Below are positions 11,717-30,432 of a stretch of DNA of 47,203 nucleotides, one piece after another. Position 1 is the first letter of the stretch. Every line of letters starts with the position of its first letter. Under the pieces are notes generated by a model that saw only the letters and a program-made list of their open reading frames with translations, was not told where the DNA came from and searched no databases. This DNA is from an uncultured Oscillospiraceae bacterium. GTDB taxonomy: Bacteria > Bacillota > Clostridia > Oscillospirales > Oscillospiraceae. The DNA is taken from NCBI GenBank assembly GCA_964539115.1, contig CAZIHY010000003.1, forward strand, positions 1 through 47,203. The letters run 5' to 3'. Both the position numbers and the translations under genes were made by a program.

Positions 11717-11828
11717 ACTCCAAATTCTTAGCGATGGAAAAAGTATAACATAATGTTGCAGATTATGCTATACTTGTTTTGCAACAATAATTTCGGATTA
11801 TCGTCTGCATAATAAAGGGGTTGATGAT

Positions 11829-14590: not shown

Positions 14591-14627
14591 ATCATCCCCA
14601 TCAGAGATATTCTCTGATGGGGATGAT
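14591..14627. terminator. 17-bp perfect hairpin between convergent operons
   Basis: ATCATCCCCATCAGAGA-tat-TCTCTGATGGGGATGAT. It lies between the + operon end (14579) and the end of the 12-gene minus operon (14641). Confidence 0.65.
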
Positions 14628-15654: not shown

Positions 15655-15662
15655 GGGATTCC

Positions 15663-17720
15663 TCATTTCAGACATGAATATACATAAGAGCTTACTGTGG
15701 ATGCACAGCTCATGAGCTGTGTTTGTGTGTCACCGCAGCCCATAAAGACGACAATATATGTCTCCTCACCGTTATCTACAATCGCAGCCTCATTATACAA
15801 ATTACTGCGCACACCATTGTGATTCATAAAGGTGTATCGGTTATCAACACCGCCGCCAAGGCCTTCGCCCGCGGTGGAATCGATAATGTACATGTTTTCC
15901 CGAAGGTAATCTCGGCCGCCGTCAAACTCACCGTTCCAAATAAGCTCAAGTATGCCCGCAACGTCGGCCGCGCTTACATAGTTTTCGTTGCTGCTGGTAG
16001 TGAATCCAATATTTGCATTGACGACAACGCTGTTGAAACCGTAATATGCGCAGACGTCCTCTATATGGCTGAATCCGAGATAATTCATCAAAGTGTTTGC
16101 AGCGTTGTTGTCGCTGTAACTGAGCATCGCGTACATCAGTGTGGAAATTTGAATATAATCTCCGTCATTTGCCGACGTCAAATATCCTCTGCCGTTAGAC
16201 TGATAATCAAAATATGCCTTGTCGCTCATCTTCAGAAAGCCGTTATCGACATCGTATAATATAGTCAGCATGATCGGAATATTTATCAGCGCTGAAGAGA
16301 TAGACTTGGAATAGGCACTGCCGGCAGAATACTGCATTTCCCGCGTGACGTCTGTTATAAAGACTGAAGCATCTGAATAGGGTGCGTAGTTGTTAAGAAG
16401 CCTGTCAAGCTCATTTTCATCCACAAGCGGATCATAATACACAGGCTCCGGGGTGGGCGTAACAGGCTGAGACGTGCTTACAGGAGGAGTTGCAATAATA
16501 TTACTGTCTTGTTGATCCGACGAATCCTGAGGCGTATCAATATTTGAAGTGATCTCGTCGTCCGGCTCATCCTCTGTAGTTTTGCATCCGCGAAGGATCA
16601 GCGCGGCAACCAGGGCAATCAAAAGGGCGGCACAGACACCGATAAGTACGATTATAAGCGTTTTGGACGCTCCGGCGCTTTTTTTAACCGTGCCGCTTGA
16701 ATTGTTATTATTGTTGTTGTTGCTGAGGCCATAGTCTCCGGAATAAGCGGAAACTGTCTTCTCATTTTGGTATATGCCGGCATCCTGTCTATAGTAAGCA
16801 GGTTCTCCCGTCAGCGCCTGTTTCATTTCAGCGGCCGTTGAGAATCTCTCCTCTGGCTGGAATTTGCAGGCACGAAGAATTATATTACTGAGTGCAGGGG
16901 AGGCGTAAGCGGGCACTGGAAGTGGCCGGCCGGAAAAGCGCATACCGTTTGAATTCTCGATATCATCAGCAGTTACAGGAGCAGGCGGAAGCGCGACAAA
17001 AGGCGGCCTGTTTGCATTGCACAGGCGATAGAGAACAAGCCCCAGAGAGTAAATATCGGAACGAAAACTGACGGATTGACCGCGGTTCAGCTCCGGAGCC
17101 ATATAATTGAGCGTTCCGGCGATCGTAACGCCCGCATTTGCATTGTCAAGAGACCTTGAGACGCCAAAATCTCCGAGCTTGAATTCTCCGCTGTTGCTGA
17201 CAAAAATATTGCTGGGTTTTATATCACGATGCAGGATGTTGCGGCTGCTCATGACCTCCAGTGCGGTACATATGTCAATGCCCAGTCTGCGCACCTCATT
17301 TTCGGTTATTGCGCGCTGCTGCAGCAGTACGGGTAGGGGAGTAAGCAGCTCCATGCGTATGAAAATATCATATCCGGGCCCATCTTTCTTGGGCACGACC
17401 ATATGATCCTCATATGACACTATGTTGGTATGCCCCTTGAGGCTGACATTGATCTCGATTTCCCTAAGCAGGCGCTTGAGCATATTTTCATAATACGCAC
17501 CGAGAGAGCTGGGATCGGTAACAATTCCATCAGCATACAGGCTGTCAGCTTCGTTTTTATCCTGAGGGATGGAAATATGTTTAATCGCAGAGTAATAAGT
17601 ATTGGTTTGTCCGTATTCAACTCTGTGTGCTCTATATACCTTACCATGGCTGCCCTGTCCGATCAAATCATCGATCTCCCAAGTACCCCAAAGCGGTGTA
17701 AAGCTGTGTATATCAGACAT
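15663..17720 (-). CDS. Hanks-type Ser/Thr protein kinase - TM - degenerate beta-lactamase-fold ectodomain
   Basis: GQGSHGKV, AIK, HRDIKPSN, DFG and APE motifs. Poly-Asn juxtamembrane run, then TM LIIVLIGVCAALLIALVAALIL. The C-terminal ~245 aa align with the downstream serine hydrolase (SDN kept) but lack SxxK (SSALIN) and have HNG in place of KTG. Confidence 0.8.
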   Translation of the reverse strand: MSDIHSFTPLWGTWEIDDLIGQGSHGKVYRAHRVEYGQTNTYYSAIKHISIPQDKNEADSLYADGIVTDPSSLGAYYENMLKRLLREIEINVSLKGHTNIVSYEDHMVVPKKDGPGYDIFIRMELLTPLPVLLQQRAITENEVRRLGIDICTALEVMSSRNILHRDIKPSNIFVSNSGEFKLGDFGVSRSLDNANAGVTIAGTLNYMAPELNRGQSVSFRSDIYSLGLVLYRLCNANRPPFVALPPAPVTADDIENSNGMRFSGRPLPVPAYASPALSNIILRACKFQPEERFSTAAEMKQALTGEPAYYRQDAGIYQNEKTVSAYSGDYGLSNNNNNNNSSGTVKKSAGASKTLIIVLIGVCAALLIALVAALILRGCKTTEDEPDDEITSNIDTPQDSSDQQDSNIIATPPVSTSQPVTPTPEPVYYDPLVDENELDRLLNNYAPYSDASVFITDVTREMQYSAGSAYSKSISSALINIPIMLTILYDVDNGFLKMSDKAYFDYQSNGRGYLTSANDGDYIQISTLMYAMLSYSDNNAANTLMNYLGFSHIEDVCAYYGFNSVVVNANIGFTTSSNENYVSAADVAGILELIWNGEFDGGRDYLRENMYIIDSTAGEGLGGGVDNRYTFMNHNGVRSNLYNEAAIVDNGEETYIVVFMGCGDTQTQLMSCASTVSSYVYSCLK
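16806..17720 (-). repeat. Kinase-domain paralog copy 1 (dispersed direct repeat with 26164-27063)
   Basis: Long runs are shared with copy 2, e.g. CATATGATCCTCATATGA...CCCTTGAGGCTGAC and CTGACAAAAATATTnCTGGGnTTTATATCACG. The proteins are collinear (FTPLWG.WEID..IGQGS.GKVYRA...). Confidence 0.7.
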
Positions 17721-17797: not shown

Positions 17798-18532
17798 TTA
17801 TGGTGATGATGGATCCTCAGCAGAGGGCGTGAACGGATCGACGGGAGTAAGCTTTCCCGGGGACTCTTGGGCCGGGGGTTCCTGTATAGGAGCTTCTGTT
17901 GACGCAGATGTTGCAGGAGCGTTTTCGGTTGGCTTGTATGTAGAAATAATGACCGTCTGATCTGTGCCGGGCGATATCTCCGCTTCTTTTACAATGATGG
18001 TGATACTTATAGATTGATTGTTCACAGAATATGTTGCACGGCACTGGGCCTCACCGGCTGACATCGCAGTAAGAGTTCCGGAATCTATAAGAAATACAGA
18101 CTCGTCAAAACTTTTCCATGTTATTGACTCTGTGTCGGCCGGCTCACCATCTGCGAGAAGTTCGATTTTGGCAGCTTCACCAACATGTAGGACGATTGAG
18201 TCCCCGGCGGCATATATGGTTCCGCTGCCTCCGCGAAGGGAGAGACCGGCAAGATCGGCCACAAGCGGAGCAGAGGAGATATCAGTCTGCGGTAGATCCG
18301 TGTCCTCTTCGGGATCCGCTGGAGACACTGTATCATAAAAAGGCGTGGGTGAAACCGAAGCGCTTTTCTGCCCGTTTTCAGCCGTAAAATATCCGGAGAT
18401 AAACAGAACTCCCGCCGTAAGCAGTACAACGACAGCTATAATGGATAATATACGCATGGAAATGGGCACGAATGGAGGAAAAACAGTATCTGCCAACGCG
18501 TGTCTTTTTTCGCCCCTGTTTTGCCGAGCCAT
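17798..18532 (-). CDS. Membrane-anchored protein with Big_2-like Ig domain and P/T/S/E-rich tail
   Basis: TM ILSIIAVVVLLTAGVLFISGYF. ITWKSFDESVFLIDSGTLTAMSAGEAQCRATY resembles bacterial Ig-like group 2 domains. GGAGG RBS. Confidence 0.5.
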   Translation of the reverse strand: MARQNRGEKRHALADTVFPPFVPISMRILSIIAVVVLLTAGVLFISGYFTAENGQKSASVSPTPFYDTVSPADPEEDTDLPQTDISSAPLVADLAGLSLRGGSGTIYAAGDSIVLHVGEAAKIELLADGEPADTESITWKSFDESVFLIDSGTLTAMSAGEAQCRATYSVNNQSISITIIVKEAEISPGTDQTVIISTYKPTENAPATSASTEAPIQEPPAQESPGKLTPVDPFTPSAEDPSSP

Positions 18533-18556: not shown

Positions 18557-19651
18557 TTATTGGAGCCTGAATACGTTTGAACGATTGCCGAGCATGATGA
18601 CCGTTCCCGGGTTAAGCGGTGTGGGCACATTTTGATTTAGTCTCGTTCCGTTTTCCAGGAAAGTTCCGTTACTGGAGTAATCTGTGACATAGAAGCATCC
18701 GGTATTTCCGTCATACTGAATTAGACAATGTTTGCGGCTGACGCTTTCACCGCCGCTGCTTATTACTATCTGGCAATACGCAGGATCGCGTCCTATGCAA
18801 ATCTGCTGATTTGGCGCTATGTCAAACGCGGTTGAAGCGTACATGCCGCTCAAGCCGACTATCTTGTGCGCAGTAAAATTATTCCTGCGCTGTTCCTGCA
18901 TACCGTTCATATAGTTTGGCATATATGCCGTGCTGCTGCCGGCGGTATTTGACTCCGGCGTGCTTTCACCGGACATCTGCTTATACAGCTCTGTTAAAGT
19001 CAGATTGACATATGGAGATATGTAAAATAAATTCAGAAGATTGAAAGTAAAGCAATTGAGTATATACCATCCGATAAAGCTCAACTTTGTAATGATTATA
19101 CCGCCAATATGATCCTTAGCGATGGCAGATGCATTGTCAAGGCATTCCTTTGCTGTCTTTTCGGGGTGGTTTGCCATATAGAAGAACAGAAAATCGTATT
19201 GGCAGCTTTTATAGATAATTATAATTATCGTATAGAGGAGCCCAAGTATCATTAACAATACAGCGATACTGAAACCACCGCTGCCGCCGCCATGGAATAT
19301 ATCTCTTACGGAAGTTCGCGCTATCACTCCTCCGATTATATAAAAAACAAGAGAGGGCAGTGTCCAGAGAAACATGAAGAGAAAATACCATATATAGCCC
19401 ATAATTGCACGAGAGAAAAGTGAAAAACCCTCAAGAACGCTGGACATGCGGGGAGTTTTTCCTGAGGTCTCCTCGAGATACCATGTGCATATACCGACCT
19501 TTGCGGCAGCTATTCCGAATGGAACGATGCTGAGAAGGACCGCCAGCATGTCAGCGCCTACGCATGCGCTCAGTCTTGTTGACATGACCTGCTTTGCACA
19601 TTCCTTTGCATGTGTCCTGTTAAACACCGTAAATTCCTCCTTATTCTTCAT
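18557..19651 (-). CDS. DUF975-like integral membrane domain fused to a C-terminal FHA domain
   Basis: Multi-TM N-terminal part ending in ...HPEKTAKECLDNASAIAKDHIGGIIITKLSFIGWYILN...ISPYVNLTLTELY (DUF975 pattern). The C-terminus ICIGRD...VSRKHCLI...SSNGTFL is a canonical FHA domain. An alternative start GTG 19627 follows AAGGAGGA. Confidence 0.7.
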   Translation of the reverse strand: MKNKEEFTVFNRTHAKECAKQVMSTRLSACVGADMLAVLLSIVPFGIAAAKVGICTWYLEETSGKTPRMSSVLEGFSLFSRAIMGYIWYFLFMFLWTLPSLVFYIIGGVIARTSVRDIFHGGGSGGFSIAVLLMILGLLYTIIIIIYKSCQYDFLFFYMANHPEKTAKECLDNASAIAKDHIGGIIITKLSFIGWYILNCFTFNLLNLFYISPYVNLTLTELYKQMSGESTPESNTAGSSTAYMPNYMNGMQEQRRNNFTAHKIVGLSGMYASTAFDIAPNQQICIGRDPAYCQIVISSGGESVSRKHCLIQYDGNTGCFYVTDYSSNGTFLENGTRLNQNVPTPLNPGTVIMLGNRSNVFRLQ

Positions 19652-20282
19652 TCATGTTCCATGAGAAACTGTCAGTGCAGCAGGGGACAAAGAGGAGCCT
19701 GGTGTTCCCTAATTTTAAAACATCCCCTGCTTTCAGCAGTGCTGTCTCCAGGACAACTTTGCCGTTTAGATAGAATAATTGGGTTGATGTTCCCGGCATA
19801 ACAAAAAAGCAATTTCCGACTGGATCATAGGACAGGATCGCATGCTTATCGGAAGATATGCTGCGGTCTCCCTTGATGGAAACGCTCATGTCGCTGCCTC
19901 TGCCGATAAAATTTCGTCCTGCGGTCAGGCGGTAATCGCGGCCCTTTGCAGCGCCTTCTATGCAGACAAGCCACCCGACGACCGGATCAATTCCGAGCCC
20001 GGAGCCTATGGCTGAAATTGTCTTATCGTTTTCAGCGGCAGATTGAGCTGCCGGTTCAGATTCCGGTCCAAACCCGGGCAATGTGGGTGAATGCGTATAT
20101 CCGGCGTTATAACCTCCGGCATAACTCTGTTGTACAGAGCCATATATATTTCCTCCCGCGAAGCCAACGGTCTTGTCAAAGCTTTTGGCCGGGTCAGTTG
20201 TCTGCATAATCTTTGCACAGTATGGACAGGTACTGTACTGAGAATTATCATAGAAATGACCGTTGCCGCATTGGATATTCAT
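19641..20282 (-). CDS. Zn-ribbon - linker - FHA domain protein (soluble)
   Basis: N-terminal C-x4-H...C-x2-C (CGNGH...CPYC). The linker carries DKTVGF and DKTISAIG. FHA block: GWLVCIEG..KGRDYRL..GRNFIGR...SSDKHAIL...YLNG. Paralog of 23007-23666. Confidence 0.75.
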   Translation of the reverse strand: MNIQCGNGHFYDNSQYSTCPYCAKIMQTTDPAKSFDKTVGFAGGNIYGSVQQSYAGGYNAGYTHSPTLPGFGPESEPAAQSAAENDKTISAIGSGLGIDPVVGWLVCIEGAAKGRDYRLTAGRNFIGRGSDMSVSIKGDRSISSDKHAILSYDPVGNCFFVMPGTSTQLFYLNGKVVLETALLKAGDVLKLGNTRLLFVPCCTDSFSWNMNEE

Positions 20283-20297
20283 TTATAGTTCCTCCCT

Positions 20298-21266
20298 TTA
20301 GTTGATTCTGATTAATGCCACAGATGTGTTATCTTGGCGGCTTCCCCCACGTTCGATCGCAGCCTCTACAAGCTCAGTTGCAGCGCTCTCCGTATTACTT
20401 CCGCTGCGATTGAGTATCGCTGCGATTTCCTGATCTGTAAGCGACTTGTACAACCCATCGCTTGCAAGAAGTACTATATCATTGGATATGAGCGGCGTAG
20501 CCGAATGACTGTGGTCAACTATCAGATGCTTACCAGAACCGATATAGCTGATAAGTGCGTCGCGCTTGGGGTGGTTCAATGCCTCCTGAAGCGTTATCAC
20601 GCCCGCGTTTACTTCATCCATAAGCCTTATCATAAAAACCTGATCTGTTGTGAGCTGATAGAGGGCCCCTTCACGCAGAATGTAGATGCGGCTGTCACCG
20701 GCAGAGCACCAGACAAGCTCATTATTTGCCACGACTACGGCCAAGACAGTGGTGCCGCAAATCAGAGGCCGTCCGTCCTCGTCCTGAAGTGAAGAAACAT
20801 ACTCGTTTGCACTCTTTATTGCGCTGATAATGGTCCCGTATAATGAGCTATATGGAGTTCGGGATGATAGCGCGGCGATAAGTATCTCCGTTGTAAAGGA
20901 ACTGGCTTTCTCACCACAGGCAAGTCCGCCCATTCCATCGCACAAAACCGCGTAAATTCCGTCCCGGTCATCAAAAGAGACCGGAGTGATGCTGACACAG
21001 TCCTGCTGGCTGTTCCGCCCTCCTATGGAGCTTGCGAGTGCTGCTGACATATTTCCGGACGAGAACGATACGGAACTGTCGGGGCGCCGTCTCTCAGCCG
21101 CGGTTTGAGCGTTGGAATAAACCTTCGTTTTTTCGGAGCGGGCAGTATTAAACTGTGGAGAGGATTTGGCCGAGGCTTTTTTTCTTACGGCGACCCATAT
21201 GATATAGAAACTCAGATAAGCAGCCGAAAGCACGCAAGCGATAAGCCAGATTTTTTCTTTTATCAT
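20298..21266 (-). CDS. PP2C-family Ser/Thr phosphatase with N-terminal TM anchor
   Basis: TM IWLIACVLSAAYLSFYIIWVAV followed by RKK. PP2C motifs GRNSQQD, VLCDGMGG, ASDGLY and RQDNTSVALIRI. Confidence 0.8.
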   Translation of the reverse strand: MIKEKIWLIACVLSAAYLSFYIIWVAVRKKASAKSSPQFNTARSEKTKVYSNAQTAAERRRPDSSVSFSSGNMSAALASSIGGRNSQQDCVSITPVSFDDRDGIYAVLCDGMGGLACGEKASSFTTEILIAALSSRTPYSSLYGTIISAIKSANEYVSSLQDEDGRPLICGTTVLAVVVANNELVWCSAGDSRIYILREGALYQLTTDQVFMIRLMDEVNAGVITLQEALNHPKRDALISYIGSGKHLIVDHSHSATPLISNDIVLLASDGLYKSLTDQEIAAILNRSGSNTESAATELVEAAIERGGSRQDNTSVALIRIN

Positions 21267-21303: not shown

Positions 21304-23010
21304 CTATATCGCTACGGCGCGAACTATCATTTTGGAATCGCCGAATCTGACAATGTCACCTATCTCGAGCTTATGGCGGGTATCGGGCATAATGGCGATG
21401 TTGTTCAGAAGCGTACCGTTTTTTGAGCCGAGATCGGTTACATAGAGGATCCCGTCTTCATACTCAAGGCAGAAATGCTGAGAAGAAACACGTCTGTCGA
21501 AATCGATGATAACGTCGTTTTCTTCACCTCTTCCGACAAAAACGCTGCTGCCGATCGAAAGTTCAAAATACTGCTGCCAGCCTCTTCCGTCGGCAAGCTC
21601 CACGCCTATTCGTGTGCCGCTTCCGGGCTTTATCCGGATGCGCCCGTTTTCATCCGGACGATACTCCGGCGGTGTTATCACAACAGCTTTTTTCCTGGAT
21701 TTTATAATGAACATTATGATGACAGCGGCGGCCAAAACGAGGATTACGCCTCCGATAAGCAGCCACACCCACAGCGGCAACAGTGCAGTTGCAGGATCAG
21801 CGCCGGTTTCTATCACAATTTCCACTACATCGGGTGACAAAGGATTAGCTTCCATTGATATATCCGATATGCCGCTCAAAGTCAGATAATATGTACCATT
21901 AACGGGAGGCTCGGAAAAAGACAGGGATGCTGTCTGAGCAGACACGGTAACTCCCACAAATGGTATGTGCTCATTTTCGCTGTTTGTAAAATCATAAGAA
22001 GCAAGATTGTCAGATCCGGAAACGGGTTCGCTGAACTCAATATCCAGCGTTATTTTGTCACTGTTATACTGGGCGATGGTCACATATGGAGCGACACTAT
22101 CGGCCTCCCAACGGTCAAGGATAAGCAGGGAATTATCTCCAGAGCTGCCAATATTGACTCTGAAGCTGTGTTCCTTGCCGTCGGCGATATTTGAAGCCGC
22201 GCGTACCTTCAAAAGCCAGCAGGCGGATACCTTGTCGTATAATTCATCAAGCGCGGAAGCTGCGTCAAGCTCGCTCTGTGTACCGAACATATACAGTTCT
22301 CCGCCATTCATGCGGGCGAGTGAGGCAAATTCGTCTATGTCGTCATTATTATGATCTGTGCTGCCGGCTGCGTCAACACACAGAGCGTTCAGCGCAATGC
22401 CGGCATTCTGAAGGCTGTCAATAAGCTCAGTTCGGGTCGTTCCGGCGCCGGCTTCCGCATCGTTTACACCGTCGGACACTACTATTGCGATTTTTCTCTT
22501 TCCGTCAACACTGCCGCAAAGCTCGATCAGTGTGCTGATCGCATCATAGAAATGTGTTGTTGAGTCACGGCATTCAAGTTCATCGATCGCCTGCTCGACC
22601 TCTTCATAGCTTTCTCCGCCGCTTAGGACGATTTGCACTTCGTCTCCAAATGTGATGAGTGCCATACTGTCGTTGGCGCCGAGTCGGTAATGATTATTAA
22701 GGATAGCCTGCCTGATCTCCCAAAAATAGTTCTTGTTTATGCTTGCGGAAATGTCGAGCAAATAGACATATAATGTCCCTTGGTCCGAGACAGCGGTGGG
22801 TGTTAGTGAAACTATATCTATGCTGTTTTCGTCAAGATAGACACTTATATCTTCAAGCCCCGCATCCCCGGCGTCGAGCTTATCATCATAAAAATAGATG
22901 TCGGCGTTGGGCATGACAGCCTGCACCTGTTCAATATCGACCGCAAGAGCGCACGCGGGCAAAACGAACGTGATCAAAACAGAGATCAGCAATCCTGCCA
23001 GCTTTTTCAC
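21304..23010 (-). CDS. Secreted vWA domain - Ig-like domain - TM - cytoplasmic FHA domain protein
   Basis: Signal peptide/lipobox-like VLPAC. MIDAS D-I-S-A-S (22741-22755) plus downstream T and SDG. TM LLPLWVWLLIGGVILVLAAAVIIMFII. FHA block VFVGRG...VSSQHFCL...SKNGTLL. The start GTG 23010 follows GGGGAGGA and overlaps the upstream TGA. Confidence 0.75.
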   Translation of the reverse strand: MKKLAGLLISVLITFVLPACALAVDIEQVQAVMPNADIYFYDDKLDAGDAGLEDISVYLDENSIDIVSLTPTAVSDQGTLYVYLLDISASINKNYFWEIRQAILNNHYRLGANDSMALITFGDEVQIVLSGGESYEEVEQAIDELECRDSTTHFYDAISTLIELCGSVDGKRKIAIVVSDGVNDAEAGAGTTRTELIDSLQNAGIALNALCVDAAGSTDHNNDDIDEFASLARMNGGELYMFGTQSELDAASALDELYDKVSACWLLKVRAASNIADGKEHSFRVNIGSSGDNSLLILDRWEADSVAPYVTIAQYNSDKITLDIEFSEPVSGSDNLASYDFTNSENEHIPFVGVTVSAQTASLSFSEPPVNGTYYLTLSGISDISMEANPLSPDVVEIVIETGADPATALLPLWVWLLIGGVILVLAAAVIIMFIIKSRKKAVVITPPEYRPDENGRIRIKPGSGTRIGVELADGRGWQQYFELSIGSSVFVGRGEENDVIIDFDRRVSSQHFCLEYEDGILYVTDLGSKNGTLLNNIAIMPDTRHKLEIGDIVRFGDSKMIVRAVAI

Positions 23011-23666
23011 CAACAAAATTCCTCCCCGCAGAAGGAGCGTAGGCAAAACAGGCTGTCACCGGCTTTTATCCTTGCCATGTCTCTAAGTGTTTTGGCACCA
23101 TCAAGCAGCGCCCCGTCCAAATATGTAACGGTTCCTGCTCCGGGAACAATAAACCAAGACTTAGACTCGGGATCGAATACAATTGAAAAATGACCGTCGC
23201 GGTTGATTTTTGGGTCATCGGCTATATTTATTTGCATACTGGCGGAGCGCCCGGCAAAGTTGCGCCCGGTATATAGGCGAAAATCGCGTCCTTTTTCCGG
23301 CCCTTCGATGCAGACAAGCCAACCCGCGACAGGGGAGAAGCTCTTTTTTTCTCCATAATTAAAGGCAGAGATGGTAGGACCGTCATCATTGTTCGAAAAA
23401 TCAAGAGGAAGAGGCCGCCCTGCTTGACCGGCAGACGGCGGCGCAGGAGAGTATGCGGAAGCTGCCGAAAAACCATAAGCGCCGATCGTTGCATCGAGTT
23501 CCGTCTCAGGAAATGGATGCTGTGGAAGTCTGCTGCCGTTCGAGCCAAATCCGTAAGCGTCGATCGTGGAATCCATATCATGGAACCTGCTTCTGCTGCA
23601 AATAGGACATTCATCGTTTCGCTGATCGTCATATCTATGCCCGTTTGGACAGATTCTGATCGCCAT
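23007..23666 (-). CDS. Zn-ribbon - linker - FHA domain protein (soluble)
   Basis: CPNGH...CPIC ribbon. The linker carries STIDAYGF, ATIGAYGF and PTISAFNYG. FHA block: GWLVCIEGPEKGRDFRL..GRNFAGR...NRDGHFSI...YLDG. Confidence 0.75.
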   Translation of the reverse strand: MAIRICPNGHRYDDQRNDECPICSRSRFHDMDSTIDAYGFGSNGSRLPQHPFPETELDATIGAYGFSAASAYSPAPPSAGQAGRPLPLDFSNNDDGPTISAFNYGEKKSFSPVAGWLVCIEGPEKGRDFRLYTGRNFAGRSASMQINIADDPKINRDGHFSIVFDPESKSWFIVPGAGTVTYLDGALLDGAKTLRDMARIKAGDSLFCLRSFCGEEFCW

Positions 23667-23679: not shown

Positions 23680-24912
23680 CTATTTTATTATCTCTCTTTC
23701 AAGTTTCAGCTCAAGTATTCTCATAACGCTTTCGTTAATGCGGGATTCCTCAATGCTTCCGTCCTTGACGGCAGCTGCGATAGCCTCGATCGCGCTTGCA
23801 GCATCCGCTGGGCCGAGAAGAATATCATTGCCTGCCTGGACGGCCATGACCGCTATCTCATCTGCCGTAAAAAACCCGGACAAAGCGCTCATTTCCAGGC
23901 CGTCGGTTATAACAACACCGTCATATCCAAGCCTCTCCCGCAAAAGTCCGATTATCACGTTAGCGGAGAGGGAGGCGGGGCGGTTTGGATCGATTGCGGT
24001 CATGGTTAAATGAGCGATCATCACCATGTCCGCTCCGGCTTCTATCCCTGATATGAACGGGAGCAGATCCTGCTCTAAAAGCTCATCTTCAGTTTTGGAA
24101 ACAGCCGCCGCTCCATAATGTGTATCGGCCCCCGCCGAACCATGTCCCGGGAAATGCTTGAGACAGCAGGCGATACCACCGTCATGAAAGCCCTCGACTG
24201 CGTAAGGGATAAGCTCTTCCGCCTGAGAAAAATCGTCACTGTATGCCCGTGTGTTTATTACTGTGTCATCAGCGTTTGTGTGTACATCAGCGACAGGGGC
24301 AAGATCAAGATTGAAGCCGAGCTCTTTCATATAGGCGGCAATAGTCTGTGCGTTGTCATGCGCTGTTTGGACGCCGTCGTCCTTATATGACAGCATGGGG
24401 CCGATCTTTTGAATATCAATAATGTTACCGGTTCTTGTGACGGTGCCGCCCTCCTCATCAGCGCATATGAAAAGTCCAATATCCGCTTTCGACTGGTATT
24501 CCGAGACGCTTGCGATGACCGCGTCTCTGGAGGGAATATCGGATTCAGAATATACCAGCCCGCCGACAGTCAGCCCGTCCAGCCAGTCAGAGGGATATAC
24601 GATCATCATCTGTGCTATTTTTTCCTCAAGAGTTAGTTCCGAAAGGATCTCTTCAGCTCTCCTGGAATAATCTGGTTCCGCTACAACAGGTTCTATCTCA
24701 GTCGGTTCCCGGGTGACTTCGGGAGACGGGGCAGCAGTCGGCGTTATGGTCTCAGGGGGCTCCGTCTGTAATTCGATGTTCGGGGTAGGGGAGGCGGCTA
24801 TATCTTCTGGATTAGCAGCATTACGTGTTTTTAGAAACGCGTAAGTCCCAGCGGACAGGAAAAACAGAACAAGCAGTATGATAAATGCGGTAATCAAAAA
24901 ACTTTTTTTCAT
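23680..24912 (-). CDS. Extracytoplasmic glycoside hydrolase family 3 (NagZ-like beta-N-acetylhexosaminidase), single catalytic domain
   Basis: Signal anchor and P/T/E-rich stalk. GH3 N-domain motifs ...ICADEEGG..., KHFPGHGSAGADTH and ...VITDGLEM... Confidence 0.75.
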   Translation of the reverse strand: MKKSFLITAFIILLVLFFLSAGTYAFLKTRNAANPEDIAASPTPNIELQTEPPETITPTAAPSPEVTREPTEIEPVVAEPDYSRRAEEILSELTLEEKIAQMMIVYPSDWLDGLTVGGLVYSESDIPSRDAVIASVSEYQSKADIGLFICADEEGGTVTRTGNIIDIQKIGPMLSYKDDGVQTAHDNAQTIAAYMKELGFNLDLAPVADVHTNADDTVINTRAYSDDFSQAEELIPYAVEGFHDGGIACCLKHFPGHGSAGADTHYGAAAVSKTEDELLEQDLLPFISGIEAGADMVMIAHLTMTAIDPNRPASLSANVIIGLLRERLGYDGVVITDGLEMSALSGFFTADEIAVMAVQAGNDILLGPADAASAIEAIAAAVKDGSIEESRINESVMRILELKLEREIIK

Positions 24913-24930
24913 CTTTTTCTCCTGGTACGT

Positions 24931-27063
24931 TCAGGGCCTCTCATAGCCGGTGTATCCGTCTCCATATTCCACTGCATATGCTGTATTATTCTTATAATAC
25001 TTAAGTTGTTCATAAGCGAATGGATCGTTCATAACATCATTGAATGTCCAGCCATATTTTTCTAGGTACCAGAGGAGTATGCAGTCCTCTATTCTCTCTC
25101 CGTCAGTACCCGATGGTTCGGTAACACACCAATATTTATCGGGCATGGATTCTCCTGTTATCCACCATGATGCAACGCCGCCGTCGACTGCTATCTCAGT
25201 GCGTCCGCCAAGCCAACAGAAGCTGCACCCCATGTCGGATACTAACTGAACTATAAGATTGAATTCATCATCAGATGTGATAGTTGCAAGGTGTCCGCCT
25301 TTATACATTGCACTGCGGTTTGCCGAGTCCCATGTGATGTCCTCACGTATCAGCTCATAGTCATGGAATGTCGCGTTAACATTCTGTATTAAGTCTGAGG
25401 GACCACCGAACATCAGCGTCCCGCTGTCTGTGAGGTAAAATTGAAGATCTTCGAACTGTACGCCGGTATTGTAATACTGTGAGTAATATGCATCCATTAC
25501 ATAACTTTCGGATAAACCGTTCTTGTTGGCATAATCCGGTGAGGTGATATATTCTCCCGTGTTTTCATCAAAGTGATACACATTAACAAATGTACTGTAA
25601 TCGGAGTGAAACGTGCTGTATGGATAGTAAGGATCATTTCTTTCTGCGTAAGTTTCGGTTATCACTATGGAACAGATCCCGTTATTCCTGATTAGTTCAT
25701 ACGTAATGACCTCAATTACCGGCGACGAGTATTCATAGATGTGTGAATAATCGGCGATTATTTGTTCGTTCAGTTTTTTAACACCGTTTGAATTTTGAAG
25801 AAACTGTGGAATACATATATCTAAATATGATTCGTCCGGCTCAAGATTATAACCGATGCCCTCCCTAAGCTGTATGAATTCGGCAGAATTCTCCTCAAGA
25901 CTATAATATGGAGATAATGTGGGTTCCGGCGTATCAGCAGGATTTATATTGGCGCCCGTATCCTCGTCTTGTGACTTGTAACTGTTGTCCTCCGAGGGGG
26001 AGGGATCGTCTTTAATTCTGGTCAGTAAGATCACGATTGCCGCTATAAGGACTATAATTGCAATGCTTGCAATTATAACTGGGATCAGCCAGAGCTTTGA
26101 CTTTGACTTTTGAGGGGCAGAACTCTCTTTCTGGCGCTCGATAGACTGAATGGGACCGCCAAGGAGGGCCCTTTTAAGTTCAGCTGCATTTAAGAATCTG
26201 TCTTCAGGATTAAACTCGCATGTTTTTAGTATTATAGCCGCAAGCTCCGGTGAAGCATACGCCGGAGCGGGAAGTGGTCGTCCGCTGAATCTGGCGGTAT
26301 TTGATGCTTCCATCATGTCCGCTGTAGCAGGCAAGGGAGGAAGCGGAACGAAGGGAGCGCGGTTTGCATTGCAAAGTCTATATAGAACAAGCCCAAGCGA
26401 GTACATGTCAGATCTCAAGCTGACATTCTGGCCGTGATTGAGCTCTGGCGCCATATAGTTGAGCGTCCCTGCCATAGTAACGCCATTTGCTGCGGAATCC
26501 ATTGTTCGCGAAACGCCAAAGTCGCCTATTTTATAATCGCCGCTGCTGCTGACAAAAATATTACTGGGCTTTATATCACGGTGAAGAATATTGTGCCTGC
26601 CCATTACTTCGAGTGCTGAGCATATATCTATACCAAGCCTGCGTACTTCATTTTCCGTTATCGCCCTTTGCTGCAGCAGCTGCGGCAAAGGCGTCAGGAG
26701 CTCCATTCGTATGAACACGTCGAAGCCCGGGCCTTCTTTGCGGGGGACTACCATATGATCCTCATATGATACAATATTTGTATGACCCTTGAGGCTGACG
26801 TTTATATCTATCTCGCGCATCAGCCGTTGAAGCATATTATCATAGTAAGCCTGCAGTGACTGTGAGTCATTTACAACTCCATCAGCAAACAGGGATTCAA
26901 CTTCCGATTGCGATGAAGGGATAGATATGTGCTTGATGGCCGAATAGTATGTTTTCTCATACTCTGTCCGTTTTGCGCGGTAAACCTTACCATAGCTGCC
27001 CTGTCCGATTATAGTGTCAATTTCCCACACTCCCCATAAAGGGGTAAAACAGCTTATATCCAT
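24931..27063 (-). CDS. Hanks-type Ser/Thr protein kinase - TM - unknown domain - C-type-lectin-like ectodomain
   Basis: GQGSYGKV, AIK, HRDIKPSN, DFG and APE motifs. TM LWLIPVIIASIAIIVLIAAIVILL. The C-terminal ~135 aa (about 24964-25368) read TWDSA...GGHLATITSDDEF...CWLGG...WWITGE...YWCVTEPSGTDGERIEDCILLW...GWTFNDV, which matches the CTLD consensus (W..A...G.LA.I.S..E..F...WIG...W.W..G...W...EP......EDC......W.D). Confidence 0.75.
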   Translation of the reverse strand: MDISCFTPLWGVWEIDTIIGQGSYGKVYRAKRTEYEKTYYSAIKHISIPSSQSEVESLFADGVVNDSQSLQAYYDNMLQRLMREIDINVSLKGHTNIVSYEDHMVVPRKEGPGFDVFIRMELLTPLPQLLQQRAITENEVRRLGIDICSALEVMGRHNILHRDIKPSNIFVSSSGDYKIGDFGVSRTMDSAANGVTMAGTLNYMAPELNHGQNVSLRSDMYSLGLVLYRLCNANRAPFVPLPPLPATADMMEASNTARFSGRPLPAPAYASPELAAIILKTCEFNPEDRFLNAAELKRALLGGPIQSIERQKESSAPQKSKSKLWLIPVIIASIAIIVLIAAIVILLTRIKDDPSPSEDNSYKSQDEDTGANINPADTPEPTLSPYYSLEENSAEFIQLREGIGYNLEPDESYLDICIPQFLQNSNGVKKLNEQIIADYSHIYEYSSPVIEVITYELIRNNGICSIVITETYAERNDPYYPYSTFHSDYSTFVNVYHFDENTGEYITSPDYANKNGLSESYVMDAYYSQYYNTGVQFEDLQFYLTDSGTLMFGGPSDLIQNVNATFHDYELIREDITWDSANRSAMYKGGHLATITSDDEFNLIVQLVSDMGCSFCWLGGRTEIAVDGGVASWWITGESMPDKYWCVTEPSGTDGERIEDCILLWYLEKYGWTFNDVMNDPFAYEQLKYYKNNTAYAVEYGDGYTGYERP
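26164..27063 (-). repeat. Kinase-domain paralog copy 2
   Basis: See copy 1. Similarity ends at the juxtamembrane region, and the ectodomains are unrelated. Confidence 0.7.
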
Positions 27064-27078: not shown

Positions 27079-28041
27079 TTACATAAGGTCGAGAATAAGC
27101 GGCAAAAATACCCCAATGCCAAATGTTAGAAGAACGCACAAAGCCCACAATACTGCCGTTTTCCAAGTGTTCATCCTGGATGGCTCAGAAGAAATAACCA
27201 GATTTTCACTGATATCGATCGTGGGTTCAGACTCATAGGAATAATCGGAGACAGGATCAGCAGCCTTGACCACAACGGCCGTAACATTGTCCCTGCTTCC
27301 TCCTTTGACAGCGCAGTCGACAATCGTTGCCGCAAGGCGTTCGGCGGTCGTCCCAACAGCAAGGATATTTGCTATTTCTCGTTCGCTGAGCCCCTCAACG
27401 ACTCCATCGCTGCAAAGAAGCAAACAATCGCCGGTTCCGAATGGAAAAGCTCCGCTGCAATGTGAACTGAGCGTCATTTCGGAGGGGTCAACGCCAATAT
27501 GCTGTGTCAACTGGTGACGGCGGCTGTCCGTTGTTGCCTGCTCTGGAGTCAGGACTCCCATATTTACCAGCTGCTGCGCCACAGTGTGGTCGCGCGAAAG
27601 CTTTTGCAGCCTGCCGCCGGAGAAAAGATAGGCGGGGCTGTCTCCGAGGTTATAAACTGTGACGTTGTCCGAGGTTATAGACGCTATTGTCATCGTTGAA
27701 CCTATACGCGCCTTTTTCTCCTTTTGCATTTCACAAACGAGTGTGTTTGCACGCTCGATATACTGGGGAATAGCACGGTCTCCGGCCTTGAGTACAGCCA
27801 GCGGGTTGCTTGCCAGCAGACGCGCGAGCAGAGAAGAAGCGCTTGCACCGTATGCCTCGCCGCCCATACCGTCAAAAACAGCGGCAACTCCCTCGGTCAG
27901 ATTTCCTGAAAAGGTACTGTAATGATCAGACGCTGCAGTCGGCATGGGGGCCTGTCCCTGTATGAAAAAGTTGTCCTCATTATTTTGCCTTACCGAACCC
28001 TTATCAGAGCAGGCGGCAAAAGTATATAAGGGAGTTGACAT
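27079..28041 (-). CDS. PP2C-family Ser/Thr phosphatase with C-terminal TM anchor
   Basis: VRQNNEDNF, AAVFDGMGG, CSDGVVEG and SRDNVTAVVV motifs. Tail TM TAVLWALCVLLTFGIGVFLPLIL. Confidence 0.8.
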   Translation of the reverse strand: MSTPLYTFAACSDKGSVRQNNEDNFFIQGQAPMPTAASDHYSTFSGNLTEGVAAVFDGMGGEAYGASASSLLARLLASNPLAVLKAGDRAIPQYIERANTLVCEMQKEKKARIGSTMTIASITSDNVTVYNLGDSPAYLFSGGRLQKLSRDHTVAQQLVNMGVLTPEQATTDSRRHQLTQHIGVDPSEMTLSSHCSGAFPFGTGDCLLLCSDGVVEGLSEREIANILAVGTTAERLAATIVDCAVKGGSRDNVTAVVVKAADPVSDYSYESEPTIDISENLVISSEPSRMNTWKTAVLWALCVLLTFGIGVFLPLILDLM

Positions 28042-28057: not shown

Positions 28058-30331
28058 TCACTTTCTGAGTGTGAGCCGCGTTGTAAAATAGCTCAGGATA
28101 TAAAATGCCGCGATACTTATGAGAAGGACACCCCACGCTGTCAGCATATGCTCCGATGTGAACTCAAATAGCGGGTCAGGCTCAAATGCCAAAAGCGGCG
28201 TATCGGCATAGCTCAACTCAAGCAGACTGTTAAGATCAGCGGAGGTCCCGTATGCCTCGACCGCCCAGCGGCAGGTCACGACAGCTGATATCTTCTCGAC
28301 AGCGCCGCTCAGTTCAAATGCGAGCCCGGAAAAAAGTATTTGAGGCATAAGAAGTATGGGGGCTACAGTCATAGCCCGGTCAGGGTTGTCGAACAGCGCT
28401 GACACAAAAAGGCCCATTCCCATCGCGGAGAGCATACAAAGATAGGTGGTTATGAAATACTCGAGAAAGGGAAGCATTATAACACCGCGGTCAGGAAGCC
28501 CGACAAGCAAAGAAAATGTGCCGCTCAGCAAAAGTGACTGAACAAGGCAGAAAATGCTCAAAACTGTGAATTTCGACAGGATATATGCCCCCAGACTCAT
28601 TGAAGATGCGTATTCCCGCTTAAGTATTACACGCTCCTTGCATATCTCCTGGATCGCATTCAGAACTCCGATCCAGAACGCAGAGCAAGCCAATGCAAAC
28701 GCCAGCGCCTTGGTTATTTTGAACTCGGCGAATTGCTCACCGTCGGCGACGAGCCATATGAGGACGGCCAAAAGGATCGCCTGAGCAAACAGCAGGGCGA
28801 GTCTTTGCCGGTCATTAGTTATAAGCCTCATATATCTTCTGCATAGGATTCCGAGCTGCGAAAAAAGCGCCTTACAGCGTTTGGTATTATTCAGCGCGGA
28901 AACGTCCGATGTATGATGCGGAGTTTTGTTTCTGCCAGTGCGGTACTGTGAAAATCTTCTGTGCCAGGTTTCAGTATCAGCGTCCAGCATTGAGTAAACG
29001 TCAACGAGACTTTCAACGCCGAAAAACGCCAACGCCTCATTTGGCGGCCCGAAAAAGCAAAGATTTCCGCCGCGCCCAAGAAAAATGATTTTATCACAAA
29101 GGTGAAGGTTAAGCGTATTGTGCGTTACAAGAATAACAGTCTTACCGTCTGAGGTCATGTTCTTGAGCGTGTGCATGAGGTTGCGCTCCGTCCCGGGATC
29201 AAGCCCGCTGGTTGGCTCGTCAAGAAAGAAGAGGCTCGGGTCGCTCAAAAGCTCAACGGCAATGCTGGCCCGCTTTTTCTGTCCGCCGGACAGGCTGCTT
29301 ATCATCGATTTTTCATGCCCGGAGAGTTCGACTGTCGCGATGACCTGTCTGACGCGATCCTCGTATTCAGTTTTGGATGTATCAGTTGGCATTCGCAGCC
29401 GCGCGGCATACATGAGCATATCCCAAAGCGTGAGTCGGTCATATACAATGTCCTGCTGCGGAACATAGCCAATGATGTTCTTCATGGCTCCGTAGTTTGC
29501 ATAAAAGTCCTCACCGTTTATGAAAACCGAGCCTGAATTTGCCTTTACGTAACCGCTGATGCAGTTCATGAAGGTTGATTTACCGGCGCCTGAGCCACCT
29601 ATGATAGCAACAAACTCACATGGATTTATTGAAAGCGAAATATGGTTGGATATTATTTTTTCTCTACCAGAGGATTTGACCTTTCTGACGATATCCACAG
29701 CATCCAAGCCTATGCCGTTTTCAGGAATAAGATATGATATTTTGCCGCCGCCAAAAACAAGCTTTGTGTTAGTTATTATAATAACGTCGTTTTCACGGAG
29801 CTTTGCCCGTCGATTTAGCATATACCCGTTTATACCGACGCCGTTTGTGCTGTTATTGTCGATTATGTACCAGCCATCTGACTCGCATACTATCCTTGCG
29901 TGGATGCGTGAAACGCCTATATGCGGTAGACATATGTTGCAATCCGTATTTCTCCCGATAGTGACGGTATTTTGTCCGGATAGGGAATAAGAGCGCCATA
30001 TCTCACGGTTATCCGACTCGCTGACAATTATAACAACGCCCATCTCGCGCGGCGACGCGGGGTCGTCTATCCTGATGGTCATGCCGTCTGAGAGTTGGAG
30101 ATTAGATATTCTCTGACCATTGAAATATAGCCCGTTTGTGCTGTTATTGTCCTGGATCGTCACAACTCCTCCGTGGATCATGAAAAAACCGTGGCAATGC
30201 GAAACATATTGTGATTTAATGATAATATCATTGTTCGCGGCAGAGCCGAAGCTGATGATGTCTTTCCCAAAACTTTCCGGAATGATGGTTTCCGCCGTTT
30301 TCCCACCGCAGATTATGCTGAGCGTCAGCAT
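28058..30331 (-). CDS. FHA-FHA-ABC transporter (NBD plus ABC-2/ABCG-type permease in one polypeptide), Rv1747-like architecture
   Basis: FHA1 is about aa 24-95 (FGS...VSHCH...STNG) and FHA2 about aa 120-195 (IGRN...VSRIHARI...STNG). Walker A GGSGAGKST, signature LSGGQKKR, Walker B LFFLDEPTSGLD. About 6 C-terminal TM helices. Confidence 0.8.
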   Translation of the reverse strand: MLTLSIICGGKTAETIIPESFGKDIISFGSAANNDIIIKSQYVSHCHGFFMIHGGVVTIQDNNSTNGLYFNGQRISNLQLSDGMTIRIDDPASPREMGVVIIVSESDNREIWRSYSLSGQNTVTIGRNTDCNICLPHIGVSRIHARIVCESDGWYIIDNNSTNGVGINGYMLNRRAKLRENDVIIITNTKLVFGGGKISYLIPENGIGLDAVDIVRKVKSSGREKIISNHISLSINPCEFVAIIGGSGAGKSTFMNCISGYVKANSGSVFINGEDFYANYGAMKNIIGYVPQQDIVYDRLTLWDMLMYAARLRMPTDTSKTEYEDRVRQVIATVELSGHEKSMISSLSGGQKKRASIAVELLSDPSLFFLDEPTSGLDPGTERNLMHTLKNMTSDGKTVILVTHNTLNLHLCDKIIFLGRGGNLCFFGPPNEALAFFGVESLVDVYSMLDADTETWHRRFSQYRTGRNKTPHHTSDVSALNNTKRCKALFSQLGILCRRYMRLITNDRQRLALLFAQAILLAVLIWLVADGEQFAEFKITKALAFALACSAFWIGVLNAIQEICKERVILKREYASSMSLGAYILSKFTVLSIFCLVQSLLLSGTFSLLVGLPDRGVIMLPFLEYFITTYLCMLSAMGMGLFVSALFDNPDRAMTVAPILLMPQILFSGLAFELSGAVEKISAVVTCRWAVEAYGTSADLNSLLELSYADTPLLAFEPDPLFEFTSEHMLTAWGVLLISIAAFYILSYFTTRLTLRK

Positions 30332-30403: not shown

Positions 30404-30432
30404 ATTATAACATTATACGTATTAAATATCAA
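30404..30432 (-). promoter_or_regulatory. Sigma-A-type promoter of the 12-gene kinase/FHA operon
   Basis: Minus strand: TTGATA (30432-30427), 17-nt spacer, TATAAT (30409-30404). It lies about 70 nt upstream of the ATG at 30331. The -35 overlaps the 14-bp perfect palindrome ATCAATATATTGAT (30428-30441). Confidence 0.45.

Follow-up and report, generated by a model that had tools for sequence, protein, structure and literature searches.

A receptor kinase with a C-type lectin domain and its neighbouring, predicted NagZ-type glycosidase in an uncultured Oscillospiraceae bacterium

Nearly all that is understood of how Gram-positive serine/threonine kinases sense the wall concerns PASTA domains, whose ligand is the stem peptide. 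In the DNA analysed here, 47,203 nucleotides (nt) from an uncultured Oscillospiraceae bacterium (GenBank assembly GCA_964539115.1, contig CAZIHY010000003.1; the whole stretch is called the window below), a receptor serine/threonine kinase (STK) of a different build is encoded directly upstream of a membrane-anchored glycoside hydrolase of family 3 (GH3), which raises the question of what such a kinase senses outside the cell and whether the enzyme beside it has a part in the signal. The C-terminal part of the kinase was found to be a canonical C-type lectin domain (CTLD) whose Ca2+/sugar-site residues are nearly invariant among its relatives, and the pairing of kinase and GH3, proposed earlier from this sequence alone, was kept at every ortholog locus with readable downstream DNA and recurs in a kinase of another lineage. 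None of the three outcomes named with that proposal as contradicting it was observed: a CTLD was predicted in the structure, the EPS and ND positions lie at the canonical ligand site, and the adjacency is found in homologous loci.

The receptor kinase and its extracellular half

The following features of the kinase gene were identified, where aa stands for amino acid positions of the product, TM for transmembrane, ORF for open reading frame and AF2 for AlphaFold2.

24931..27063, minus strand: receptor Ser/Thr kinase gene, 710 aa, comprising kinase domain, TM helix, RsiV-like module and CTLD (ORF; Pfam Pkinase 6.9e-39; orthologs at 41-73% identity)
26191..27024, minus strand: Hanks catalytic domain, aa 14-291 (Pfam Pkinase 6.9e-39)
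26020..26094, minus strand: single TM helix LWLIPVIIASIAIIVLIAAIVILLT, aa 324-348 (hydropathy and sequence reading)
25402..25878, minus strand: RsiV/PdaC-like extracellular module of the DUF4163+DUF3298 fold, about aa 396-554 (AF2 and Foldseek)
24961..25365, minus strand: canonical long-form CTLD, aa 567-701 (phmmer against the PDB, Pfam matches of relatives, AF2/Foldseek, family profile)
25102..25119, minus strand: EPSGTD loop, aa 649-654, with E-P-S (649-651) at the EPN/QPD position (aligned to EPD of CLEC4D)
25081..25092, minus strand: IEDC, aa 658-661, in which E659 is the equivalent of the third principal Ca2+-site ligand (CLEC4D and family alignment)
25033..25044, minus strand: FNDV, aa 674-677 (FND 674-676), at the WND position (CLEC4D and family alignment)

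The last ~135 aa of the kinase, taken for a CTLD by eye in the sequence-only reading, are indeed a canonical CTLD of the Lectin_C type. When the last 148 aa were compared by phmmer with 177,635 PDB sequences, 44 of the 45 matches were C-type lectin domains, the best being PLA2R (1.4e-6) and CLEC4D/MCL (2e-6), and a profile of 36 CTLD sequences matched 121 solved CTLDs, the best at 4e-37. The AF2 model of aa 384-710 had a mean pLDDT of 91.7 and a pTM of 0.79, and its best 50 Foldseek matches in the PDB were all canonical CTLDs at probability 1.0, including Dectin-2, CL-K1, MCL, MGL, CD23, Mincle and DC-SIGN, with target-normalised TM scores of 0.60-0.76 except for the multi-domain uPARAP entry (0.23). 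The domain carries a WIGL-like 'WLGG' motif, and Lectin_C was matched in 93 of the 97 relatives scanned with Pfam, among them the 67% ortholog P0002, which scored 23.1 bits against a cutoff of 22.6. The ectodomain alone, run against Pfam and NCBIfam, gave no match to Lectin_C, FGE-sulfatase, DUF4163 or DUF3298. The FGE-sulfatase branch of the superfamily, which had been brought up earlier in connection with bacterial kinases, was dropped, since the PDB and Foldseek matches are canonical CTLDs.

The residues of the presumed sugar site were located within the string YWCVTEPSGTDGERIEDCILLWYLEKYGWTFNDV, which is present at about aa 643-677 as quoted before, and the earlier placement of EPS at the EPN/QPD position and of FND at the WND position was upheld by both alignments. 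In the phmmer alignment to CLEC4D (107 residues) EPS is matched with EPD, FND with WND, and E659 with the Glu that precedes the Cys; in the 36-sequence family alignment (A2) P650, D654 and E659 are invariant, S651, N675 and D676 are conserved in at least 90% of sequences, and the position of E649 is mostly Glu with a few Gln or Gly, around a consensus of GEPSGxDxDG..E.C.MLW....GW.(W/F)NDQRNDP. EPS, E and ND thus map to the principal Ca2+/sugar site. This site, which in MBP-A numbering we take to have five ligands (the E and N of EPN, a further E, and the N and D of WND), appears to retain four of the five in the window CTLD (E649, E659, N675 and D676), with Ser651 in place of Asn. Among 296 related bacterial CTLD domains, 208 begin the triplet with E and 44 with Q, while 121 end it with S, 94 with N and 33 with D, and the resulting triplets (EPS, EPN and QPD-like) belong to the types known from sugar binding. 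The EPS triplet is compatible with glycan binding, as mammalian DCIR illustrates (PMC3679074).

Both disulfides of the fold, C1-C4 and C2-C3, are absent from the window CTLD, which has residues other than Cys at C1 and C4 and no Cys after FND. According to A2, C1 and C4 (aa ~584 and ~698) have disappeared jointly from the window protein and from the three ortholog types closest to it (73-58% identity) and are kept together in the 51% and 41% orthologs and in most of the family, so that the loss is correlated and specific to a sub-clade and not a property of anaerobes. The missing cysteines noted in the sequence-only reading are therefore real, and the anaerobic explanation offered for them is superfluous, as most relatives from the same kind of organism retain C1-C4.

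The kinase itself is predicted to be a type-I receptor Ser/Thr kinase whose cytoplasmic half is, judged by its motifs, catalytically complete: the G-loop GQGSYGKV (20), AIK (42-44, with Lys44), HRD (161), DFG (181) and APE (205) are all intact. The lysine-rich stretch KSKSK precedes the TM helix on its cytoplasmic side, and with the helix at aa 324-348 after this stretch the kinase domain comes to lie within the cell and aa ~350-710 on its outside. Identity as a PASTA kinase was rejected, given that the Pfam scan of the protein gave no PF03793 match and that the NCBIfam model PknB_PASTA_kin (NF033483) reached 117.8 bits against a cutoff of 450, over the kinase domain only. An exact-sequence lookup of the 710-aa protein returned no matching record.

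Between the TM helix and the CTLD, the ~170-aa region is supported by its predicted model as having the RsiV/DUF4163-DUF3298 fold, at fold level only. The AF2 model of aa 384-566 had a pLDDT of 90 and a pTM of 0.87, and its best Foldseek matches were the uncharacterised 3cyg (6e-5) and RsiV itself (5jen, 6.4e-5; query TM 0.52), at TM scores that are moderate; the next were the PgdA N-terminal domain (2c1i), the DUF3298 protein PA4972 (4e72) and MPT64 (2hhi). Of these, 3CYG, 4E72 and 2HHI are named as structural neighbours of RsiV in the paper on its structure (PMC5014341). At the sequence level, neither PF13739 nor PF11738 was matched by Pfam in the middle region of the window protein, PF13739 was matched weakly (E=0.031) in one of nine orthologous middle-region sequences, and a middle-region profile searched against the PDB found nothing. 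An analogous kinase, P0021, has a recorded PF13739 (PdaC/DUF4163) match in the same position, and hhalign of the middle region with that PdaC-annotated region gave E=0.036 and a probability of 1.4%. The stretch LDICIPQF...KKLNEQI, which had suggested such a resemblance before, is present after the TM helix; the resemblance thus holds for the fold (5jen and 3cyg at ~6e-5) and fails as a significant match in sequence.

The CTLD belongs to an extensive bacterial family. An exhaustive HMMER search of the ectodomain against 1.84 billion representatives (50% identity clusters) returned 2,477 matches at E<=1e-3, of which 413 reached E<=1e-10; nearly all of them run through the CTLD. A word-indexed search with the ectodomain as query gave only one protein, carrying a CTLD and an M23 peptidase, and missed the 51-73% orthologs, which the same search found with the full-length query, so that its negatives for short divergent queries do not amount to absence. 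The family consensus (A1) reads GEPS...WxWNDQRNDP...GYICEYE. About 34 of the 97 relatives share the commonest architecture, an N-terminal Zn-ribbon, a TM helix, a vWA domain and a CTLD; TPR repeats, dockerins or multi-CTLD arrays are seen in others, whose length reaches ~7,000 aa, and in P0001 a secreted CTLD of the EPN/WND type is fused to Peptidase_M23, a peptidoglycan endopeptidase, as a further bacterial link between a CTLD and a wall hydrolase. An animal-type CTLD, usually seen as a module of metazoan innate immunity, is a large and well conserved family of gut Clostridia, in which recurrent signalling architectures and the EPS, EPN and QPD triplets are kept.

C-type-lectin-fold domains are known as targets of diversity-generating retroelements (DGRs), as cited in the comparison below. 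The candidate that the window CTLD is a DGR target was rejected: no second copy of the CTLD-coding DNA, hence no template/variable repeat, was found within the 47-kb window, and no reverse transcriptase was present among its ORFs scanned. Repeats in the window are confined to the two paralogous kinase domains described below, a pair of FHA paralogs and a pair of FAD-oxidoreductase genes at 1082/2875.

The GH3 gene and its adjacency to lectin domain proteins

24913..24930, minus strand: intergenic spacer of 18 nt, with an AGGAG ribosome-binding site 6 nt before the ATG of the GH3 gene (sequence)
23680..24912, minus strand: membrane-anchored, single-domain GH3 beta-N-acetylglucosaminidase of the NagZ type, as predicted, 410 aa (Pfam Glyco_hydro_3 8.4e-64)
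24832..24903, minus strand: signal-anchor helix, aa 4-27, with a linker rich in Pro, Thr and Glu behind it that extends to about aa 80 (sequence reading)
24118..24159, minus strand: KHFPGHGSAGADTH, aa 252-265, NagZ signature with Asp-His dyad (YbbD alignment; invariant in GH3 alignment A4)
23890..23910, minus strand: ITDGLEM, aa 335-341, with D337 on the nucleophile Asp of 'VTDAL' in YbbD (alignment)

The gene after the kinase is, as had been read from the ORFs, a GH3 at a gap of exactly 18 nt, a spacer that ties it translationally to the kinase gene, with KHFPGHG starting at aa 252. PF00933, the N-terminal (beta/alpha)8 catalytic domain, covers it at 8.4e-64 over the full profile; the best PDB relatives are the N-acetylglucosamine (GlcNAc) hydrolase 6k5j (3.4e-56), Bacillus subtilis YbbD/NagZ (6.8e-51) and mycobacterial LpqI (6.7e-35). 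The NCBIfam beta-N-acetylhexosaminidase model (PRK05337) is the best-scoring family, at 159.2 bits and under its equivalog cutoff of 207. The NagZ signature, KH(F/I)PG(H/L)G-x4-D(S/T)H with its Asp-His dyad and a nucleophile Asp, is said to have been defined by Litzinger et al. in 2010. The window protein consists of the catalytic domain only, without the second domain of B. subtilis NagZ. That enzyme is a secreted exo-enzyme which takes the non-reducing GlcNAc off peptidoglycan and muropeptides (PMC8054146), and the window GH3 is likewise predicted to be a NagZ-type exo-beta-N-acetylglucosaminidase with its catalytic domain in the same compartment as the kinase ectodomain. The signal-anchor helix agrees with the earlier view of an extracytoplasmic, membrane-anchored enzyme and disagrees with its description as secreted, in the sense of freely released.

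The GH3 was the next gene in all eight distinct CTLD kinases of the EPS...(W/F/L/M)ND type with readable downstream DNA (the window, L001, L017, L018/19, L020, L021/22, L023 and L029). The kinase orthologs stand at 73, 67, 58, 51 and 41% identity, together with one relative in which the middle domain is replaced, and the adjacency holds despite a rearranged upstream neighbourhood (L021), an inserted extra kinase (L023) and that swapped middle domain (L023). The L029 kinase comes from a different lineage, with 25% identity overall and a GC content of 56% against 48% in the window; its architecture is Pkinase-PdaC-Lectin_C (EPSGSD...EDC...WND), and a TM-anchored GH3 with the NagZ signature follows 15 nt on. 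CTLD kinases with QPN/QPD-type triplets had no GH3 beside them (none of five, at L024, L025 and L028), nor did 13 kinase loci of the same family with other, non-CTLD ectodomains.

Further associations were observed outside the kinases. In a reverse search of metagenome contigs with the GH3 profile, two loci carried a CTLD gene directly upstream, neither of them encoding a kinase: at L036:1918-5114 a Zn-ribbon-TM-vWA-CTLD protein ends in a stop codon overlapping the start of a TM-anchored NagZ-like GH3, and at L082:4012-6269 a Zn-ribbon-TM-CTLD protein ends 17 nt before such a GH3, both CTLDs being of the EPS...WND type. In a neighbour-joining tree of GH3 domains, which lacks support values and serves as a rough guide only, the window group, L029 and L036 share one clade with partnerless GH3s and L082 lies elsewhere. 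We read these data as a real, recurrent linkage between EPS-type CTLD membrane proteins and NagZ-like GH3s, which is neither bound to kinases nor universal. The stronger proposition that every CTLD kinase has a hydrolase partner was rejected on L027, whose neighbours are a binding protein and a two-component system, and on L028, whose neighbour is a PASTA kinase.

Several neighbourhoods showed features of their own. In L029:1-7631 the GH3 is followed by an STK-YARHG paralog and then by one lipoprotein-like gene that combines Amidase_3 with a beta-lactamase fold, a set that recalls the NagZ/AmiE exo-enzymes of B. subtilis, here with each enzyme beside a kinase. In L024:7084-15824 and L025:2435-10946, tandem QPN/QPD CTLD kinases lie among genes for TM-anchored GDPD, metallophosphatase/VanY and S11 DD-carboxypeptidase proteins and PP2C, and in these arrays the GDPD stop overlaps the kinase start. 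YARHG and PP2C genes occur near the pair in L082. In L003:10001-12245, from an Oscillospiraceae metagenome-assembled genome, the reading frame of the syntenic kinase gene shifts near aa 203 and is broken within the CTLD by an in-frame stop codon, and the FHA-ABC gene upstream of it is also split; these interruptions may be assembly errors or pseudogenes. The 390-455-aa 'upstream partners' of the closest GH3 relatives were low-complexity antisense ORFs with no Pfam match and were discarded.

From these observations we infer the ligand and the direction of the relation between enzyme and receptor as follows. The lectin domain would bind a sugar with a free equatorial 3,4-diol, most likely the GlcNAc at the non-reducing end of a peptidoglycan strand, a muropeptide or a glycopolymer of the wall; exactly that residue would be taken off by the GH3, whose activity would thereby set or reset the ligand level for the receptor, and ligand occupancy would alter kinase activity. 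What suggests that the GH3 makes or trims the ligand of the lectin is solely the conserved adjacency of the genes. Taken as a whole, a lectin kinase that reads a wall glycan set by the GH3 and signals through the FHA and PP2C proteins of its operon is a picture for and against which we find the balance about even; that some functional link joins CTLD and GH3 we regard as the better bet of the two, and the specific ligand named above as the less secure part. The ligand proposal is directly testable with GlcNAc-terminated muropeptides, with and without Ca2+.

A number of observations count against this picture. Pfam Lectin_C (PF00059) is not matched on the window kinase even at E<=10; the canonical Asn of EPN is replaced by Ser and the auxiliary Ca2+ site is apparently absent; some EPS CTLDs, for example the non-lectin CTLDs of the mannose-receptor family, are not known as sugar binders; and CTLDs and RsiV-like domains both often bind proteins, so that the ligand may not be a glycan. 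As to the gene pair, no GH3 was found beside the EPS kinase of L027, which has YCD for WND; a CTLD gene lay directly upstream in only two of the 80 loci of the reverse search, many of which had too short a stretch upstream for a verdict; no CTLD partner accompanies the closest GH3 relatives, at 43-47% identity; and seven of the eight GH3-positive kinases form one orthologous, syntenic cluster and are not independent.

That one syntenic cluster, and the lack of a CTLD neighbour in most GH3 relatives, would be expected if there were no ligand relation at all and the GH3 were an output or a passenger of an envelope-homeostasis operon, held in position by vertical inheritance. We consider this improbable, because the adjacency has outlasted the rearrangements of L021 and L023 and recurs in L029 and in the non-kinase loci L036 and L082, and because in L029 the GH3 comes after the CTLD kinase and not after the neighbouring YARHG kinase.

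A protein ligand, bound by the RsiV-like module, the CTLD or both, and consisting of the co-encoded GH3, acting as co-receptor or as a regulated enzyme, or of an exogenous muramidase such as host lysozyme, would agree with several of the findings: the middle module shares the fold of RsiV and of its structural neighbours 3CYG, 4E72 and 2HHI, RsiV is a direct lysozyme receptor (PMC5014341), many CTLDs bind proteins, kinase and GH3 are tethered to the same membrane face, and module, CTLD and GH3 occur together in two unrelated kinase lineages. Nevertheless, lysozyme binding is not common to all DUF4163/DUF3298 proteins, as Rv1980c does not bind it (PMC5014341); L023 keeps CTLD and GH3 with the middle module replaced; L036 and L082 pair a CTLD with a GH3 and have no RsiV-like module; and a protein ligand alone leaves the strict conservation of the Ca2+/sugar site unexplained. 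On balance this alternative seems to us quite unlikely.

The operon and its possible output

30404..30432, minus strand: best minus-strand promoter-like site, TTGATA-17-TATAAT with TG, upstream of the FHA-ABC gene (consensus match only)
28058..30331, minus strand: FHA-FHA-ABC(nucleotide-binding domain)-ABC2 membrane exporter, Rv1747-like, first operon gene (Pfam; Rv1747/PknF literature)
27079..28041, minus strand: PP2C phosphatase with a TM helix at its C-terminus, separated from the kinase gene downstream by 15 nt (Pfam and sequence reading)
23007..23666, minus strand: Zn-ribbon and FHA protein (ORF; Pfam)
21304..23046, minus strand: protein with extracellular vWA, TM helix and cytoplasmic FHA domain (Pfam and sequence reading)
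20298..21266, minus strand: second PP2C phosphatase, with N-terminal TM helix (Pfam and sequence reading)
19641..20282, minus strand: second Zn-ribbon and FHA protein (Pfam)
18557..19651, minus strand: DUF975 membrane domain and FHA protein (Pfam)
17798-18532, minus strand: 244-aa membrane protein with one TM helix and a Pro/Thr-rich tail (weak Big_2-like signal, E=0.06)
15663..17720, minus strand: second receptor kinase, with a class-A beta-lactamase-like (Beta-lactamase2) ectodomain (Pfam and sequence reading)
14641..15675, minus strand: TM-anchored Beta-lactamase2 protein with intact S143xxK, S179DN and K284TG, last operon gene (Pfam and motifs)
14591..14627, plus strand: hairpin with a 17-bp stem past the last gene, candidate operon terminator (pattern match only)

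Twelve minus-strand genes follow one another closely between 30331 and 14641, the kinase and the GH3 being the third and fourth; this run of ~16 kb holds two STKs, two PP2Cs and six FHA-domain proteins and is syntenic in several Oscillospiraceae contigs. The hairpin past the last gene was called on the plus strand, and its T-tail lies on the wrong strand for a minus-strand operon. In relatives, too, the gene of the 244-aa membrane protein lies after the DUF975-FHA gene and before the second kinase; the protein was assigned to no family. The flanking genes are of the housekeeping kind (uvrA, recD2, mreB, Mur ligase, spoIIE and znuABC), which places the operon in the chromosome of a sporulating Firmicute. 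The genomes nearest to it are metagenome-assembled ones of uncultured Oscillospiraceae from human gut. Elsewhere, long overlapping ORFs without a Pfam match were observed at 8428-10026 (both strands) and at 11798-12809, where the sequence is locally GC-richer (0.52), and no RNA family of Rfam was matched anywhere in the window.

The two kinases of the operon have kinase domains that are 75% identical. The ectodomain of the second lacks SxxK and KTG and is, by these motifs, a putative pseudo-enzyme sensor. Since the gene after each kinase encodes a membrane-anchored enzyme from a family related to peptidoglycan, the operon holds two sensor-kinase/enzyme pairs. The pair of second kinase and beta-lactamase has the same sensor-by-enzyme layout as that of CTLD and GH3 and is kept in relatives such as L021. 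A layout in which a sensor lies beside an enzyme of the same substrate, found twice in one operon, would if general offer a rule for guessing the ligands of orphan receptor kinases.

As for the phosphorylation targets, phospho-Thr marks set by the kinase would be read by the six FHA proteins of the operon, including the Rv1747-like exporter and the vWA-TM-FHA protein, and erased by the two PP2Cs; in Mycobacterium tuberculosis, PknF regulates the FHA-ABC exporter Rv1747 of the same operon (PMC3138270). The dead beta-lactamase-like sensor of the second kinase, beside its intact paralog, would likewise read the peptide side of the wall.

The gene content of the operon bears on two further explanations. 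According to the first, the lectin senses environmental or host glycans, reading GlcNAc- or Man/Fuc-terminated glycans of the gut (mucin, N-glycans, chitin-derived, or fungal and bacterial polysaccharides), with the GH3 as a foraging enzyme and the kinase tuning export or uptake. The closest relatives do come from human gut and rumen metagenomes, EPN/EPS sites accept several sugars with equatorial diols (DCIR, with EPS, binds N-glycans), and the dockerins on some CTLD relatives suggest polysaccharide-degrading Clostridia. We nonetheless judge it unlikely, as the GH3 is by signature and best solved relatives of the NagZ type, that of peptidoglycan recycling, as Pfam scans found no sugar transporter or catabolic genes in the operon, and as the enzymes of the sister pair and of L024, L025 and L029 are of wall-peptide or teichoic type (beta-lactamase-like, VanY, S11, amidase and GDPD).

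According to the second, the FHA/vWA/PP2C/STK cluster is an anti-phage or conflict system, in which the lectin would recognise the surface of an invader or competitor. Combinations of vWA, FHA, PP2C and STK are known in proposed conflict systems, and PADLOC matched the kinase domains to mad6 and PD-T4-6 and the ABC ATPase to mad3. These matches cover generic kinase and ATPase domains only, with none for eight other proteins of the cluster, and identity as a known defence system was rejected on this ground; the cluster has no nuclease or other effector, lies amid housekeeping genes (uvrA, recD2, mreB, Mur ligase and spoIIE) and is syntenic across relatives, all of which makes a defence role very improbable.

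If a wall-reading lectin kinase is accepted, a broader proposal can be made, which we put forward tentatively and hold to be rather doubtful as a whole. Clostridia would have an unstudied class of 'C-type lectin receptors', in which EPS-type CTLDs, tethered on the outer face of the membrane through a kinase, Zn-ribbon or vWA anchor, would each have a membrane-anchored glycosidase of the NagZ type as an obligate partner; the lectin would read non-reducing GlcNAc ends in the cell's own peptidoglycan or wall glycan, the enzyme would write or erase them, and the kinase versions would signal to an FHA/PP2C phospho-Thr network, so that an operon with a glycan-side and a peptide-side pair would act as a wall-status proofreading circuit complementing the PASTA kinases. 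In a sharper variant, the kinase would by virtue of its RsiV-like module act as a receptor of muramidases, host lysozyme among them.

Comparison with known systems

Every single part of the locus is a known family, and public annotation tags some of the relatives with Lectin_C. New are the tri-modular sensor of RsiV-like module, CTLD and kinase, the conservation of a NagZ-type enzyme as its partner and, for the bacterial family of EPS-type CTLDs, how large it is and how well its site is kept; the full-text literature search brought up no account of a bacterial Hanks kinase with a canonical Lectin_C domain.

With the animal C-type lectin receptors (CLEC4D/MCL, Dectin-2, Mincle, DCIR and DC-SIGN) the window CTLD shares the fold, to the point of being detectable by sequence (CLEC4D 2e-6), and a principal site of E-P-S, E and N-D, EPS being found also in DCIR. 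It differs in being bacterial and fused to a kinase via a TM helix, in lacking both disulfides and in having no evident auxiliary Ca2+ site; its sugar binding is predicted. Plant lectin receptor kinases, including the single C-type LecRK, combine a lectin ectodomain, a TM helix and a Ser/Thr kinase. Their architecture is thus the same; their origin is independent, the window kinase being of the bacterial Hanks type in an FHA/PP2C operon.

In cyanobacteria, C-type-lectin-fold domains diversified by DGRs are fused to Ser/Thr kinases (PMC7517822), in the only literature found with a bacterial Hanks kinase bearing a ligand-binding domain with a C-type lectin fold. Those domains are of the CLec fold and hypervaried by a retroelement, whereas the window CTLD is a canonical Lectin_C domain with a conserved site. 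The middle module shares its two-lobed fold with RsiV and with the N-terminal domains of PdaC/PgdA, and like RsiV it is extracytoplasmic, follows a TM helix and is linked to peptidoglycan-active enzymes; it gives no significant sequence match, and the output in the window is a kinase, whereas that of RsiV is the regulated proteolysis of an anti-sigma factor.

YbbD/NagZ and LpqI resemble the window GH3 in being GH3 enzymes outside the membrane with KHFPGHG-x4-D(S/T)H and an aligned nucleophile Asp. The window enzyme consists of one catalytic domain and lacks the alpha/beta domain at the C-terminus of YbbD; it is held by a TM helix and a Pro/Thr-rich linker instead of a lipobox and is encoded in a signalling operon and not in a murQ/murP recycling operon. 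The operon itself is closest in layout to PknF-Rv1747, a Ser/Thr kinase in an operon with an ABC exporter bearing two N-terminal FHA domains (PMC3138270); PknF has no comparable ectodomain, and the window operon goes beyond this layout with two PP2Cs, five further FHA proteins, another kinase and two extracytoplasmic enzymes.

The PASTA kinases (PknB, PrkC and Stk1/StkP) are, like the window kinase, single-pass Gram-positive Hanks receptor kinases with a co-encoded PP2C and FHA readers, and their extracellular domain is presumed to read peptidoglycan-derived ligands. The window kinase differs from them in having no PASTA repeats, in a sensor of RsiV-like module and CTLD that would read glycan and not stem peptide, and in a dedicated glycosidase as its fixed neighbour. 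A CTLD kinase with a conserved site, fixed beside an enzyme that trims terminal GlcNAc, would be the glycan-side counterpart of the PASTA kinases.

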